Notes: generated from the sequence alone by a model not told the origin. A DNA stretch of 64,000 nt from Escherichia coli (GCF_003790525.1 NZ_CP033635.1); one strand, 5' to 3'. Counted from the first letter of the stretch, positions 13,522 through 64,000 are shown. Numbers and translations: made by a program.

Positions 13522-14253
13522 CTAGCTGCGCTGACGAACCGCTTCAAATAAGCAAATTCCGGTTGCAACCGAAACGTTCAGGGAAGAAACACTTCCTGCC
13601 ATTGGGATGCTGATCAACTCATCGCAATGTTCACGGGTCAGGCGACGCATACCTTCACCTTCCGCGCCCATCACCAGCGCCAGGCGTCCGGTCATTTTGC
13701 TCTGATAGAGTGTATGATCCGCCTCGCCTGCCGTACCGACGATCCAGATATTCTCTTCCTGCAACATACGCATGGTGCGCGCCAGATTAGTCACCCGAAT
13801 CAGCGGAACGCTTTCTGCCGCACCACAGGCCACTTTTTTCGCCGTGGCGTTGAGCTGTGCGGAGCGATCTTTCGGCACAATCACCGCATGAACACCAGCG
13901 GCGTCCGCGCTACGCAGGCACGCGCCGAGGTTGTGCGGATCGGTTACGCCGTCGAGGATCAGCAGGAACGGTTGATCGAGCGAAGCGATCAGATCCGGCA
14001 GATCGTTTTCCTGATACTGCCGTCCTGGCTTCACACGAGCGATAATGCCCTGATGCACGGCACCGTCGCTTTTCTCGTCGAGATATTGGCGGTTTGCCAG
14101 CTGGATAACCACGCCCTGGGACTCAAGGGCGTGAATCAGCGGCAACAGACGTTTATCTTCACGGCCTTTTAAAATAAAGACTTCCTGAAAACGTTCAGGG
14201 GCGCGCTCCAGCAGGGCCTGCACTGCGTGGATGCCGTAAATCATTTCGCTCAT
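13522..14253 (-). CDS. rlmB: 23S rRNA (guanosine2251-2'-O)-methyltransferase RlmB
   Basis: 243-aa [33 protein letters not shown]..., SpoU family. Confidence 0.93.
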
Positions 14254-30870: not shown

Positions 30871-30946
<76 letters not shown>

Positions 30947-30981
30947 TTGGGTGGTCTGTGCTTTACAGCACTTTCAAATTT

Positions 30982-31057
<76 letters not shown>

Positions 31058-31178
31058 TTAATCTTCGTCTTTCGAACTGCTACTACCTTGGCTGCCTTCA
31101 CTCACCTTAGTCACTTACTTTTGTAAGCTCCCAAGGATTCGTTCAGTTGCCGCCTTGTCGCAATTCGAAATACTGCGA
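31058..31178 (-). other. 121-bp extra spacer segment inside the tRNA-Gly array, with weak tRNA-Gly-like blocks (possible decayed tRNA copy or small insertion)
   Basis: Spacer between second and third tRNA-Gly is 157 nt versus 35 nt for the other; the conserved 36-nt trailer repeat is present at 31179..31214, so 31058..31178 is extra; contains GCCAAGGT and AGTTCGA in tRNA order. Confidence 0.4.
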
Positions 31179-31214
31179 TTGGGTGGTCTGTGCTTTGCAG
31201 CACTTTTCAAATTT

Positions 31215-31290
<76 letters not shown>

Positions 31291-46786: not shown

Positions 46787-46804
46787 ATCAGGCTCCGGAG
46801 AATT

Positions 46805-46850
46805 GGGGCCGTCCCCGGTGAAAAGAGGCGTTTGCAGGTCGTCCTGCAAA
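46805..46850 (-). ncRNA. guanidine-II (mini-ykkC) riboswitch in the gdx leader
   Basis: On the minus strand: two short hairpins with ACGR loops, gcagg-ACGA-cctgc and gggg-ACGG-cccc, about 20-65 nt upstream of the gdx ATG. Confidence 0.7.
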
Positions 46851-60717: not shown

Positions 60718-60793
60718 GCCCGGATAGCTCAGTCGGTAGAGCAGGGGATTGAAAATCCCCGTGTCCTTGGTTCGATTCCGAGTCCGGGCACCA
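60718..60793 (+). tRNA. pheU: tRNA-Phe (anticodon GAA)
   Basis: GCCCGGATAGCTCAGTCGGTAGAGCAGGGGATTGAAAATCCCCGTGTCCTTGGTTCGATTCCGAGTCCGGGCACCA; pheU rather than pheV because of the yjdC/dsbD context. Confidence 0.96.
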
Positions 60794-60868
60794 CTTTCAC
60801 TTCCAGATTCATCTCCCGAACTCCACGAAACTCAAGTATAATCACATCGTTACAAGCAATCTGAACAT

Positions 60869-60899
60869 CCTGAACTCCACCGAACTCTACTGAACTCTC
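60869..60899 (+). repeat. three tandem 10-bp direct repeats (tgaactccac / cgaactctac / tgaactctct) in the integrase leader
   Basis: Read directly; 10-bp periodicity; a fourth copy (gaactccac) at 60818; consensus TATAAT hexamer at 60837..60842. Confidence 0.6.
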
Positions 60900-60969
60900 T
60901 CTCAATCAAGCGTTCATTGGGGGCACCGGTGGGGGCTCATTGTGTTCAGTCAGTTTCAGGAGCCCCCAT

Positions 60970-62154
60970 ATGGCACTTACAGCCAGACAGGTCGAAACAG
61001 CCAGACCTAAAGAAAAAGACTATAAACTCTCTGACGAACGTGGTTTATATCTGCTGGTAAAAACCACGGGTGCCCGCTACTGGCGGCTTAAATACCGGAT
61101 AGCAGGAAAAGAGAAAAAACTGGCCCTCGGCGTCTATCCCGACGTCTCCCTTGCTGAAGCCAGAATCAAACGCGACGATGCCCGAAAAATTATCTCCGAA
61201 GGTGGCGACCCGGGCGAAAAGAAGCGAAAGGAAAAACTCACTCAGAAAATCTCTGCCACCAATACGTTCCATGCCCTTGCTACGGAATGGCATCAGCATA
61301 AATCTTTGTCATGGTCTGAAAGTTACGCCAGAAGCGTACTGGAGGCTCTGGATAAAGATATTTTCCCGTATCTGGGCAAACGAAGCGTTACTGATATCCT
61401 CCCGCTGGAAATGCTGGAAATTCTGCGCCGCATAGAAAAACGTGGCTCGCTGGAAAAACTTCGTAAGGTGCGTCAATACTGTAATCAGATTTTTCGTTAT
61501 GCCATCGCCACCGGACGAGCCACTGTCAATCCGGCATCTGAACTGACCAGTACGCTGGCGGCGCCAAAAGCTGCACATTTCCCCCACCTGAGAGCAGATG
61601 AGCTCCCTGTTTTTCTCCGGAAGCTCGCTGAATATCATGGCAGTCCTGTTACCCGCATGGCGACAAATCTGCTGCTTCTGACAGGCCTCAGAACGATTGA
61701 ACTACGGTCCGCTGAATGGTCAGAAATTGATTTTGATAATGCCCTGTGGACAATCCCTGAAAGCCGCATGAAAATGCGACGTAAACATGTCGTACCACTG
61801 TCACGACAGGCCACTGACATTCTGCTGCAGCTCAAAACTTTCTCCGGACAATACCGGCTGGTTTTCCCGGGACGTTGTGATATCAACAAGCCAATGAGCG
61901 AAGCCAGCATCAATATGGTGCTCAAACGTATCGGTTACGATGGCAGGGCAACCGGTCATGGTTTTCGTCACACCATGAGTACCATTCTGCACGAACAGGG
62001 CTTTAATTCTGCCTGGATTGAAATGCAGTTAGCTCATGTGGATAAAAATTCCATCAGGGGTACCTATAATCATGCCCTGTATCTCGATGGTCGCCGTGAA
62101 ATGATGCAATGGTACGCTGACTACATTGATTCACTTTCCATCCAGGAGAGTTAA
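60970..62154 (+). CDS. P4-type tyrosine integrase (phage/genomic-island integrase)
   Basis: ORF 60940..62154 trimmed to MALTARQVETARPKEKDYKLSDERGLYLLVKTTGARYWRLKYR; C-terminal catalytic region HGFRHT...LAHV...Y; directly 3' of a tRNA gene. Confidence 0.9.
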   Translation: MALTARQVETARPKEKDYKLSDERGLYLLVKTTGARYWRLKYRIAGKEKKLALGVYPDVSLAEARIKRDDARKIISEGGDPGEKKRKEKLTQKISATNTFHALATEWHQHKSLSWSESYARSVLEALDKDIFPYLGKRSVTDILPLEMLEILRRIEKRGSLEKLRKVRQYCNQIFRYAIATGRATVNPASELTSTLAAPKAAHFPHLRADELPVFLRKLAEYHGSPVTRMATNLLLLTGLRTIELRSAEWSEIDFDNALWTIPESRMKMRRKHVVPLSRQATDILLQLKTFSGQYRLVFPGRCDINKPMSEASINMVLKRIGYDGRATGHGFRHTMSTILHEQGFNSAWIEMQLAHVDKNSIRGTYNHALYLDGRREMMQWYADYIDSLSIQES

Positions 62155-62196
62155 TTACACTTTGTCCTGAAATTATTCTCACAATCAATAACCTTT

Positions 62197-62221
62197 CCCT
62201 CTGATCTGTAAGATCAGAGGG
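62197..62221. promoter_or_regulatory. perfect 10-bp inverted repeat (ccctctgatc-tgtaa-gatcagaggg) between integrase and regulator
   Basis: Read directly; no adjacent U-tract, so either a protein-binding palindrome or a non-canonical terminator. Confidence 0.5.
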
Positions 62222-62303
62222 ATTCCGTTAACTTACAATAAGTGATATTGGTTGTCTGGAGATTTAGGGGGACGGTCTACTATAATAATTAGCAGGAGAT
62301 AAT

Positions 62304-63314
62304 ATGTCACTTAAGGCGATTGCCACTGCACTCGGAGTTTCTGTCACCACTGTCAGTCGGGCTCTTGGAGGCTATGCAGATGTGTCAGCTTCCACCCGTG
62401 CACGGGTGGAAGCTGAAGCTCGTCGACGCGGTTACCGTCCTAATACTCAGGCAAGAAGACTCAAAACCGGTAAAACCGATGCTGTCGGTCTGGTTTATCC
62501 TGGACGTGATGTGCCATTTAACAGTGGTGTTTTTATGGATATGGTCAGTTGCATCAGCCGGGAACTTGCTCACCATGATATTGACTTACTACTGATAGCT
62601 GATGATGAGCATGCCGATTGCCACAGCTATATGCGGCTTGTTGAAAGTCGCAGGGTTGATGCTCTCATCATTGCACACACTCTGGATGACGATCCCCGTA
62701 TCACACACCTTCATAAAGCAGGTATTCCATTTCTGGCTCTTGGTCGGGTACCATCTGGTCTGCCCTGTGCGTGGTTTGACTTTGATAATCATGCCGGGAC
62801 TGGACAGGCAACCCAGAAACTGATTGCTTTGGGACATAAACGTATTGCATTGTTGAGTGAAGACACTTCACATAGCTATGTTGTTGCAAGACGTCAGGGA
62901 TGGCTTGATGCACTGAATGAGCATGAACTGGAAGATACATGGCTGCGGCTGGTTTCTCCCACACGGCGAGCAGGATATCAGGCCGTGATGGAGTTAATGT
63001 CACTACCGATACCACCAACAGCTATTATTACTGACAATGACCTGAGTGGAGATGGTGCTGCCATGGCACTGCAGTTGAGCGGTCGTCTTTCAGGAAAAGA
63101 TGCGGTATCTCTGGTTGTATATGATGGTTTGCCACAGGACAGTATTATTGAGCTGGATGTGGCTGCAGTTATTCAGTCAACACGAAGCCTCGTTGGTCGC
63201 CAGATTTCCGAGATGATATATCAGATAATTACTGATTCATCATCAAAACCACTACAGGTTGTCTGGAACCCGGTATTTTATCCGGGAAAGACGATTCATC
63301 CTCCTTGCTCCTGA
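62304..63314 (+). CDS. LacI-family transcriptional repressor (RafR-like)
   Basis: 336-aa ORF MSLKAIATALGVSVTTVSRALGGYADVSASTRARVEAEARRRGYRPNTQARRL, N-terminal HTH plus periplasmic-binding-protein-like fold. Confidence 0.85.
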   Translation: MSLKAIATALGVSVTTVSRALGGYADVSASTRARVEAEARRRGYRPNTQARRLKTGKTDAVGLVYPGRDVPFNSGVFMDMVSCISRELAHHDIDLLLIADDEHADCHSYMRLVESRRVDALIIAHTLDDDPRITHLHKAGIPFLALGRVPSGLPCAWFDFDNHAGTGQATQKLIALGHKRIALLSEDTSHSYVVARRQGWLDALNEHELEDTWLRLVSPTRRAGYQAVMELMSLPIPPTAIITDNDLSGDGAAMALQLSGRLSGKDAVSLVVYDGLPQDSIIELDVAAVIQSTRSLVGRQISEMIYQIITDSSSKPLQVVWNPVFYPGKTIHPPCS

Positions 63315-63337
63315 TTTTTTTATCCAGCTCACATATC

Positions 63338-63372
63338 CGAAACGTTTTGGTTGATACCCGAAACGTTTCGGA
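63338..63372 (+). promoter_or_regulatory. twin palindromic operators flanking a TTGATA -35-like hexamer
   Basis: ccgaaacgttttgg (63338..63351) and perfect palindrome ccgaaacgtttcgg (63359..63372), centres 21 bp apart, with ttgata between them. Confidence 0.75.
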
Positions 63373-63409
63373 TCAACAGTAAGGCATCCCTGAGAAAGGA
63401 GAATGTCTT

Positions 63410-64000
63410 ATGGTTTCAAAGTACTGCAGACTGAGCAGTCCTCGCTCTGATTTAATTATTAAAACCCGTCCACATGCAGAAATTATCTGGTGGGGCTCTG
63501 CACTGAAACATTTCTCACCGGATGACTGTGCCAGCCTGGAAAGACCGGTTGCGAATGGTCGTCTGGATATTGATACGCCACTAACACTGATGGCTGAAAA
63601 TGCCCTGGGACTTTTTAGCTCTCCGGGACTGGAAGGACACAGGAATGGGCTGGATGCATCTCCTGTTTTTTATACAGTTGACGTGGAACATACCGAAAAC
63701 ACTCTGAGACTTACCAGTGAAGATTCGGTAGCCGGCCTGCGTCTGGTCAGCGAGCTGGTGATGACGCCATCAGGAATTCTGAAAGTTCGTCATGCACTGA
63801 CCAACCTCAGAGAGGGGGACTGGCAGATAAATCGTTTCGCCATCACTTTACCTTTAGCGGAACGTGCGGAAGAAGTCATGGCTTTTCACGGACGCTGGAC
63901 TCGTGAATTTCAGCCGCACAGGGTACGTCTCACTCATGATGCTTTTGTTCTGGAAAATCGCAGAGGGCGGACATCTCATGAGCATTTTCCGGCGCTGATT
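63410..64000 (+). CDS. GH36 alpha-galactosidase (RafA-like), N-terminal 197 codons; continues beyond window end
   Basis: Manual translation MVSKYCRLSSPRSDLIIKTRPHAEIIWWGSALKHF...ENRRGRTSHEHFPALI, open to window edge; not in ORF track because it has no stop. Confidence 0.7.
   Translation, partial: MVSKYCRLSSPRSDLIIKTRPHAEIIWWGSALKHFSPDDCASLERPVANGRLDIDTPLTLMAENALGLFSSPGLEGHRNGLDASPVFYTVDVEHTENTLRLTSEDSVAGLRLVSELVMTPSGILKVRHALTNLREGDWQINRFAITLPLAERAEEVMAFHGRWTREFQPHRVRLTHDAFVLENRRGRTSHEHFPALI

Follow-up and report, generated by a model that had tools for sequence, protein, structure and literature searches.

A raffinose operon behind a tRNA-Phe integrase in Escherichia coli: one end of a genomic island at pheU

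The locus at pheU

This report concerns the last part of a 64,000-nucleotide stretch of Escherichia coli DNA (NZ_CP033635.1, assembly GCF_003790525.1; the whole stretch is hereafter called the window), where a phenylalanine tRNA gene, a tyrosine integrase gene and the beginning of a raffinose utilization (raf) operon follow one another on the + strand, in what appears to be the left end of a genomic island. The tRNA gene is pheU, encoding tRNA-Phe(GAA), at 60718..60793; it was called by ARAGORN and the Rfam tRNA model agrees. The lysU-cadCBA-pheU-dicD(yjdC)-dsbD region of K-12 MG1655 was used as the query for core synteny and compared with the window by BLAST. The two align at 98.9% through dsbD, yjdC and the tRNA, and because the K-12 alignment goes no further than 60793, core synteny ends at the last base of the tRNA, where an earlier note on this DNA had placed it. 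The last 23 bases of the tRNA (60771..60793) make up the core of the attachment site and, at the same time, the island's left direct repeat, the same 23-mer recurring with 21 of 23 positions identical at the far island end of strains DETEC-P881 and CM2. Base composition shows no sharp boundary here, GC content being 0.44-0.52 in the island part and 0.48-0.56 before it, and was not used as evidence.

A spacer of 176 bp (60794..60969) separates the tRNA end from the integrase ATG and forms the arm of the left attachment site (attL). The hexamer GAACTC occurs in it four times (60818, 60872, 60882 and 60892), inside 20-nucleotide repeat units that occupy 60814-60897, against 0.06 copies expected per 176 bp from the window-wide frequency. 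These repeats are candidate arm-type binding sites of the integrase, a role that stays speculative because the motif is absent from the right (attR) side of the island in DETEC-P881.

The integrase gene (60970..62154) is intact and encodes 394 amino acids from the RefSeq-annotated ATG at 60970, that is, at the 176-bp distance from the tRNA given in the earlier note. The protein has an arm-type DNA-binding domain (Arm-DNA-bind_3, PF13356, 1.7e-26), a central domain (Phage_int_M, PF22022, 2.5e-30) and a catalytic domain (Phage_integrase, PF00589, 7.7e-26), all intact, and matches the PRK09692 integrase domain of NCBIfam (3.4e-92). Catalytic motifs, with the R, H-x-x-R and Y residues of tyrosine recombinases, are found from residues 239 (GLRTIE), 330 (HGFRHT) and 364 (GTYNH). 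The best phage matches listed are integrases of the Sf6/HK620 IntS type, of some Klebsiella phages and of Pseudomonas phiAH14b, at 46-47% identity; P4 is not among them, so that the name P4-type, under which the enzyme had been introduced, is justified by the arm-type domain architecture and holds at that level only. The gene is followed by a short spacer (62155..62227), within which homology to raf-less islands carrying the same integrase ends, and which contains a perfect 10-bp hairpin at 62197-62221 with arms CCCTCTGATC (at 62197) and GATCAGAGGG (at 62212).

The raf operon

Raffinose is imported by the porin RafY and the proton symporter RafB. The alpha-galactosidase RafA hydrolyses it to galactose and sucrose, and sucrose is split by the invertase RafD. 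The repressor RafR binds two palindromic operators that flank the -35 element and keeps the operon silent until an alpha-galactoside inducer is present.

In the window, rafR (62304..63314) encodes a LacI-family repressor of 336 amino acids, with Pfam matches in its cluster to PF00356 (the LacI helix-turn-helix) and PF13377/PF00532. The models that it matches in NCBIfam are all generic LacI-family ones, with scores below the cut-off. NCBIfam holds no raf-specific equivalog model, neither the RafA fragment of the window nor RafY matches any of its models, and a large protein search with RafR returned generic names only, with no direct link to the curated RafR entry. Downstream of rafR stand two 14-bp palindromes, O1 (CCGAAACGTTTTGG, 63337..63350) and O2 (CCGAAACGTTTCGG, 63358..63371). 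Their centres are 21 bp apart, and a -35-like TTGATA (63351-63356) lies between them; from what is established for the raf operon, we take them to be the RafR operators and the hexamer to be the -35 element. O1 and O2 are the only exact matches to the operator pattern in the window; one other site, at 13569, has two mismatches, and 1.24 matches with at most two mismatches would be expected by chance per 64 kb. The last feature is the 5' part of rafA (63410..64000), 197 codons of a family GH36 alpha-galactosidase gene whose reading frame is open at the window end. The arrangement announced in the earlier note, a LacI-type repressor, twin operators and an alpha-galactosidase gene running off the edge, is thus present in every part.

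The remainder of the operon can be followed in fetched genomes that match the left end of the island at 99.9-100% and continue, on one strand, through rafR, rafA, rafB, rafD and rafY. The window translation of rafA is the N-terminus of the 708-amino-acid protein WP_000253907.1 of identical genomes. Rather than being interrupted shortly after the window, the 708-codon gene is intact in KOr019, DETEC-P881, CM2 and W2-5, and all five products are intact in the fetched genomes that share this left end (336, 708, 425, 476 and 464 amino acids). RafA has the Pfam domains Glyco_hydro_36N, Melibiase (6e-113) and Glyco_hydro_36C and matches the solved GH36 alpha-galactosidases AgaSK and AgaA at about 1e-97. 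RafB (425 amino acids) is a LacY-type oligosaccharide symporter of the major facilitator superfamily (TIGR00882, 678 bits) and RafD (476 amino acids) a GH32 invertase (scrB_fam, 460 bits), both above the cut-off; RafY (464 amino acids) is a porin recognized by the Pfam model 'glycoporin RafY' (PF16966, 4.3e-148). Five residues of RafB (V35, S138, R139, G389 and I391) can be compared with those named in the title of a paper cited by PMC12815263 (Val-35, Ser-138, Ser-139, Gly-389 as well as Ile-391): four of the five agree, and the mismatch at residue 139 could be a difference of numbering or of allele. Judged by these matches, by five intact proteins in the relatives and by 98.8% DNA identity to plasmid copies, the cargo is identified as the raf operon rafRABDY, a firmer assignment than the 'raf-like' module that had been proposed.

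Taken together, we read 60794-64000 as the attL-side end of a large integrative island inserted in the 3' end of pheU, with an arm-type integrase at its edge and raf as its first cargo, and assign this reading a probability of about 0.9.

Extent and content of the island

The window's closest match is the genome of the chicken strain CM2 (100.0% identity over 25 kb). Its island measures 82,408 bp, up to a repeat of the tRNA 3' end that agrees at 21 of 23 positions. DETEC-P881 has an island of the same structure of 72.1 kb. A second copy of the pheU 3' end had been predicted beyond the window, and these two relatives with the same left end do carry it: the distal direct repeat is TTTCATTCCGAGTCCGGGCACCA (21/23), followed, just as in K-12, by an integrase relic resembling yjdQ and then by cadC. 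Because K-12-type sequence including this relic resumes after the distal repeat, the island was added to a K-12-like site; beyond the window itself, a copy of ATTCCGAGTCCGGGCACCA would be expected to adjoin the yjdQ-like relic and cadC. This relic, a small pseudogene of an integrase lying between cadC and the attachment site at pheU, is found in K-12 (yjdQ, L004 8192-8354) and in island carriers (L007 2102-2261; L011 15272-15431), and its presence in both means that the site hosted an older element before the island. Apart from the two ends, no further copies of the tRNA-end repeat with up to five mismatches, as tandem accretion would leave, were found inside the island.

Past raf, the islands of DETEC-P881 and CM2 contain fragments of the insertion sequences (IS) IS1 and IS2, genes for a TPR protein and a phosphoethanolamine transferase, an ISEcp1-blaCTX-M insertion, an outer membrane protein gene, an integrase relic, a type I restriction-modification locus, genes for MazG-like and thymidylate synthase proteins and, at the far end, a CP4-like module with YfjI, an antirestriction protein, RadC, CbeA/CbtA and ParDE. 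The internal integrase relic is 45% identical to the window integrase over 31 amino acids and is distinct from the yjdQ relic. In KOr019 the content after raf is unlike that of the other two strains. The unseen part of the island had been named as the place to look for novel cargo; this hope finds no support in the relatives, which show a familiar mosaic of insertion sequences, resistance genes, type I restriction-modification, toxin-antitoxin genes and a CP4-like end.

Some details of this mosaic may be recorded here. The CM2 island carries ISEcp1-blaCTX-M-14 (L010 27645-31372), and that of DETEC-P881 carries floR, tet(A), strAB and sul2 together with ISEcp1-blaCTX-M-55 (L006 17405-24269 and 44644-47034). 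The type I restriction-modification locus (DETEC-P881 L005 39495-43401 and L006 1-5874; CM2 L010 16168-24945) holds a 540-amino-acid AAA ATPase and an adjacent protein of 298 amino acids. PADLOC matches the former to PDC-M55A (1e-40), NsnB and AriA, and returns no match for the latter; they may form a pair of defence genes embedded within the hsd locus. Outside the island, the window also contains a match to the guanidine-II (mini-ykkC) riboswitch (50.4 bits, 46804-46850, - strand), in what synteny with annotated relatives marks as the sugE/blc region, and a tight cluster of three tRNA genes with identical scores (30874-31290, - strand).

Distribution at pheU and pheV

The base of the genome survey was 5426 complete E. 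coli genomes, and plasmids were surveyed in PLSDB. The exact integrase protein was found on about 1000 contigs, and at a coverage of at least 80% the integrase is present in 526 of the complete genomes. The integrase-raf junction occurs in 282 of them, with 1.4 kb of pheU flank in 102 and with 1.4 kb of pheV flank in 191; overall, about 5% of complete E. coli genomes carry the island. Counted in any form, raf is found in 469 genomes, at 314 chromosomal and 191 plasmid places. Strain W2-5 has an identical island, with the same protein accessions, behind yqgA-pheV. This is clearly an accessory element, one that occupies either tRNA-Phe gene and is found less commonly at pheU. This agrees with the accessory island that had been proposed at pheU and is far from what would be seen if these genes were core in most E. 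coli. As far as sequence can tell, three features point to site-specific integration: an integrase gene, direct repeats derived from the tRNA, and the occupation of pheU as well as pheV. A 78-amino-acid helix-turn-helix protein (WP_000958154.1) is a possible excisionase.

The island itself is not new. A paper on strain Sanji (PMC6392093) reports an insertion of 69.2 kb in its chromosome, shared with six other strains, and lists rafRABDY, relE/parE, yeeV/yeeU and a resistance cluster for it. On comparison, the Sanji chromosome matches the dsbD-yjdC-pheU-int-rafR-rafA stretch of the window over its full length at 99.4-100%, and the pheU-int-raf part at 100.0%. The island is one that has already been sequenced and reported, and is of a well-known kind; literature searches on raffinose together with pheU or with genomic islands yielded nothing specific to E. 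coli besides the Sanji paper. Bird isolates are frequent among the best pheU-type matches, which fits published associations of raf genes with chicken E. coli isolates (PMC12987596; PMC12815263). On raffinose-rich, soy-based diets the island may give a growth advantage, and this would fit its frequency in poultry isolates.

Insertion of raf behind the integrase

Islands with the same or a closely related integrase and without raf indicate what the locus looked like before the operon arrived. In AF60 (pheV; afa/dra adhesins) the TPR gene comes directly after int, and in BY63 (pheU) it comes after IS5 and IS1 insertions behind int. When the BY63 island is compared with that of the raf-bearing DETEC-P881, homology stops at L005 21587, which corresponds to window position 62186, 32 bp past the int stop; homology to the raf-less islands resumes at the TPR gene that comes after raf in DETEC-P881, CM2 and W2-5. 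This break behind int, with resumption at the TPR gene past raf, makes raf an insertion into an older island.

Both edges of the inserted segment bear traces of IS2. On the left, directly upstream of rafR, a solo relic of the left terminal inverted repeat of IS2 occupies 62228..62279 and is 97% identical to the IS2 terminus over 33 bp; in the alignment with plasmid pIP1206, the plasmid keeps the full IS2 end whereas the window has an 8-bp deletion. About 240 plasmids match this stretch alone, by way of their IS2 copies. A promoter scan found a promoter-like site (TGGAGA, 18 nucleotides, TATAAT) at 62257-62286, overlapping the relic, and rafR may be driven by this putative IS2-derived hybrid promoter. 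On the right, 566 bp past the rafY stop of DETEC-P881 (L005 29863-30166), lie the first 307 bp of IS2 from the right inverted repeat end, cut by IS1. This fragment has the same orientation as the left relic, and the annotated gene layout is the same in CM2 (L010) and W2-5 (L013). Two directly oriented IS2 relics around an 8.2-kb passenger have the layout of a composite transposon, from which we infer that the 8.2-kb raf segment arrived flanked by IS2 and inserted just behind the int gene of an island already in place.

Relation to plasmid raf

In PLSDB, raf is found on 453 plasmids, of which 171 cover at least 80% of 62160-64000. The chromosomal operon and that of the IncF plasmid pIP1206 (NC_010558) form a single alignment of 8642 bp at 98.8%, and the plasmid and island Raf proteins differ by three to seven residues each (RafR by 4 of 336 in pIP1206). 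About 184 plasmids also carry the 3' 760 bp of int (61395..62154) as a truncated remnant upstream of rafR. Among the plasmids listed, the break falls at base 602 of the query 60794-62303, that is, at window position 61395, with one exception at base 611, 9 bp later. In pIP1206 the 8642-bp alignment begins at this breakpoint, next to a complete IS2, and continues without interruption across the 3' 760 bp of int, the spacer and the IS2 relic to the end of the operon.

Since the integrase is native to raf-less tRNA-Phe islands, the junction between int and raf was formed in an island, and the lineage of about 184 plasmids is derived from it. By this reasoning from sequence, the plasmid raf lineage with truncated int would descend from the island copy. 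A later insertion of IS2 into int would have let the block of truncated int and raf pass to IncF plasmids. On a porcine enterotoxigenic E. coli plasmid there is a third raf lineage, 91% identical in DNA (RafR 87.5%), in which no part of the integrase is present and the relic upstream of rafR is of another IS3-family element. As a separate observation, a pig-derived plasmid record (NZ_CP137739.1, 35955-37312) contains the complete integrase and the 176-bp spacer (99.3%) without raf; either a plasmid has captured the left end of an island here, or the record is an artefact of assembly.

Weighing of the explanations

One interpretation of the history of the element extends beyond the window: IncF raf would be a descendant of the tRNA-Phe island, through one IS2-enabled jump followed by spread, and the island would still move between pheU and pheV and be selected in poultry by soy raffinose. 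We hold this composite account at even odds. Its opposite in direction is that raf is a plasmid module simply relocated beside a resident integrase, the plasmid being the source and the chromosomal copy a derived dead end. The operon was historically known from plasmids and is abundant on them, the IS2 relics around the chromosomal copy would fit an IS-bounded unit that came from a plasmid, and the more divergent lineage sits on a porcine plasmid devoid of the integrase fragment. A plasmid source nevertheless leaves the truncated island int unexplained, shared as it is by so many plasmids together with the spacer, the IS2 relic and practically one breakpoint; the integrase belongs to raf-less tRNA-Phe islands, and chromosomal places outnumber plasmid places in complete genomes. 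We therefore consider the plasmid-source explanation unlikely. The earlier note had likewise described a plasmid-borne module relocated to the chromosome: what survives of that proposal is a mobile, IS-bounded arrival, suggested by the IS2 relics, while the one-way direction is incomplete in view of the plasmids that carry the 5'-truncated island gene.

It is also conceivable, though on the doubtful side, that the island is a fixed and degenerate remnant with an inactive integrase, and that homologous recombination, in flanking core or in shared island sequence, has carried the raf block from strain to strain and between islands at pheU and pheV. The numerous IS fragments and pseudogenes of the island and the integrase relic inside it speak for this, as do the strain-specific content downstream of raf (KOr019 compared with DETEC-P881 and CM2) and the presence at both tRNA-Phe genes of related integrases (95.8% DNA identity in the int region) that could serve as recombination substrates. 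Degeneration is harder to reconcile with an integrase reading frame that is full length, has all its domains and catalytic motifs and is 100% conserved across many unrelated hosts, with clean tRNA-derived direct repeats at the island ends, and with the occurrence of one and the same left end at pheU and at pheV. That the region might be ancestral core DNA, lost from K-12 and most other strains, has a negligible probability. The yjdQ integrase relic between pheU and cadC of K-12 does show past events at this site, but the idea is refuted by the distribution and by the repeat-bounded structure: the pheU junction is confined to 102 of the genomes surveyed, the segment is bounded by the tRNA-end repeat, the same element stands at pheV in other strains, and K-12-type sequence with the yjdQ-like relic resumes past the distal repeat.

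Several points weigh against the reading of the locus given here and the history attached to it, and are best stated together. The window covers just 591 bases of rafA, the remaining operon and the island end being deduced from other genomes, and O1, O2 and their -35 element were assigned by sequence only. Occupancy of both pheU and pheV could result from homologous recombination between related resident islands, and an island so crowded with IS elements and pseudogenes, with an integrase relic inside it, may have lost the ability to move as a whole. The IS2-composite origin is built on two short relics, of which the left measures only about 50 bp; a target-site duplication was not identified. 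Finally, the association with poultry is a raw count, uncorrected for sampling, in which 29 of the best 60 pheU-type matches come from poultry or other birds.

Comparison with known systems and significance

The operon resembles plasmid raf of the pRSD2 type, for which the pIP1206 copy was compared, in gene order, gene sizes, the putative operator pair and the spacer upstream of rafR, with the same 98.8% identity over 8.6 kb. It differs in being chromosomal and in standing behind a complete int at its tRNA attachment site, in an island of 70-80 kb, whereas the plasmid keeps only the last 760 bp of int, cut by IS2. The islands of DETEC-P881 and CM2 have the modules listed for the Sanji insertion; the strains differ in their resistance inserts and in the size of the island (69.2 kb in Sanji, 72.1 kb in DETEC-P881 and 82.4 kb in CM2). 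In the part of the Sanji account available to us (PMC6392093), tRNA-Phe attachment, the integrase, the pheV site, IS2 relics and a plasmid link are not described.

Islands at tRNA-Phe genes with P4-family integrases are known from elsewhere, one example being the locus of enterocyte effacement at pheU in Escherichia albertii (PMC4700944). The raf island shares with them the attachment genes, the kind of integrase at its edge, the far tRNA repeat and a CP4-like end module, and its integrase is closely related (95.8% DNA identity) to that of the afa/dra adhesin island at pheV of AF60. Unlike in the tRNA-Phe virulence islands, the cargo next to the window integrase is a sugar utilization operon and not a set of virulence genes.

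As a discovery the finding counts for little: the genes, their function and the kind of island are textbook matter, and the sequence stands in hundreds of public genomes. What is added to a known island is its dual occupancy of pheU and pheV, the IS2 relics that bracket raf, and the plasmid int remnant as a mark of island descent. In complete E. coli genomes the capacity for raffinose use lies more often on the chromosome, with 314 places, than on plasmids, with 191. The plasmid int remnant provides a marker with which gene flow from island to plasmid can be traced. The raf island also gathers resistance genes, among them CTX-M-14 in CM2 and CTX-M-55 with floR-tet(A)-sul2 in DETEC-P881, which suggests that diet-linked selection in poultry could co-select the resistance genes that the island carries.

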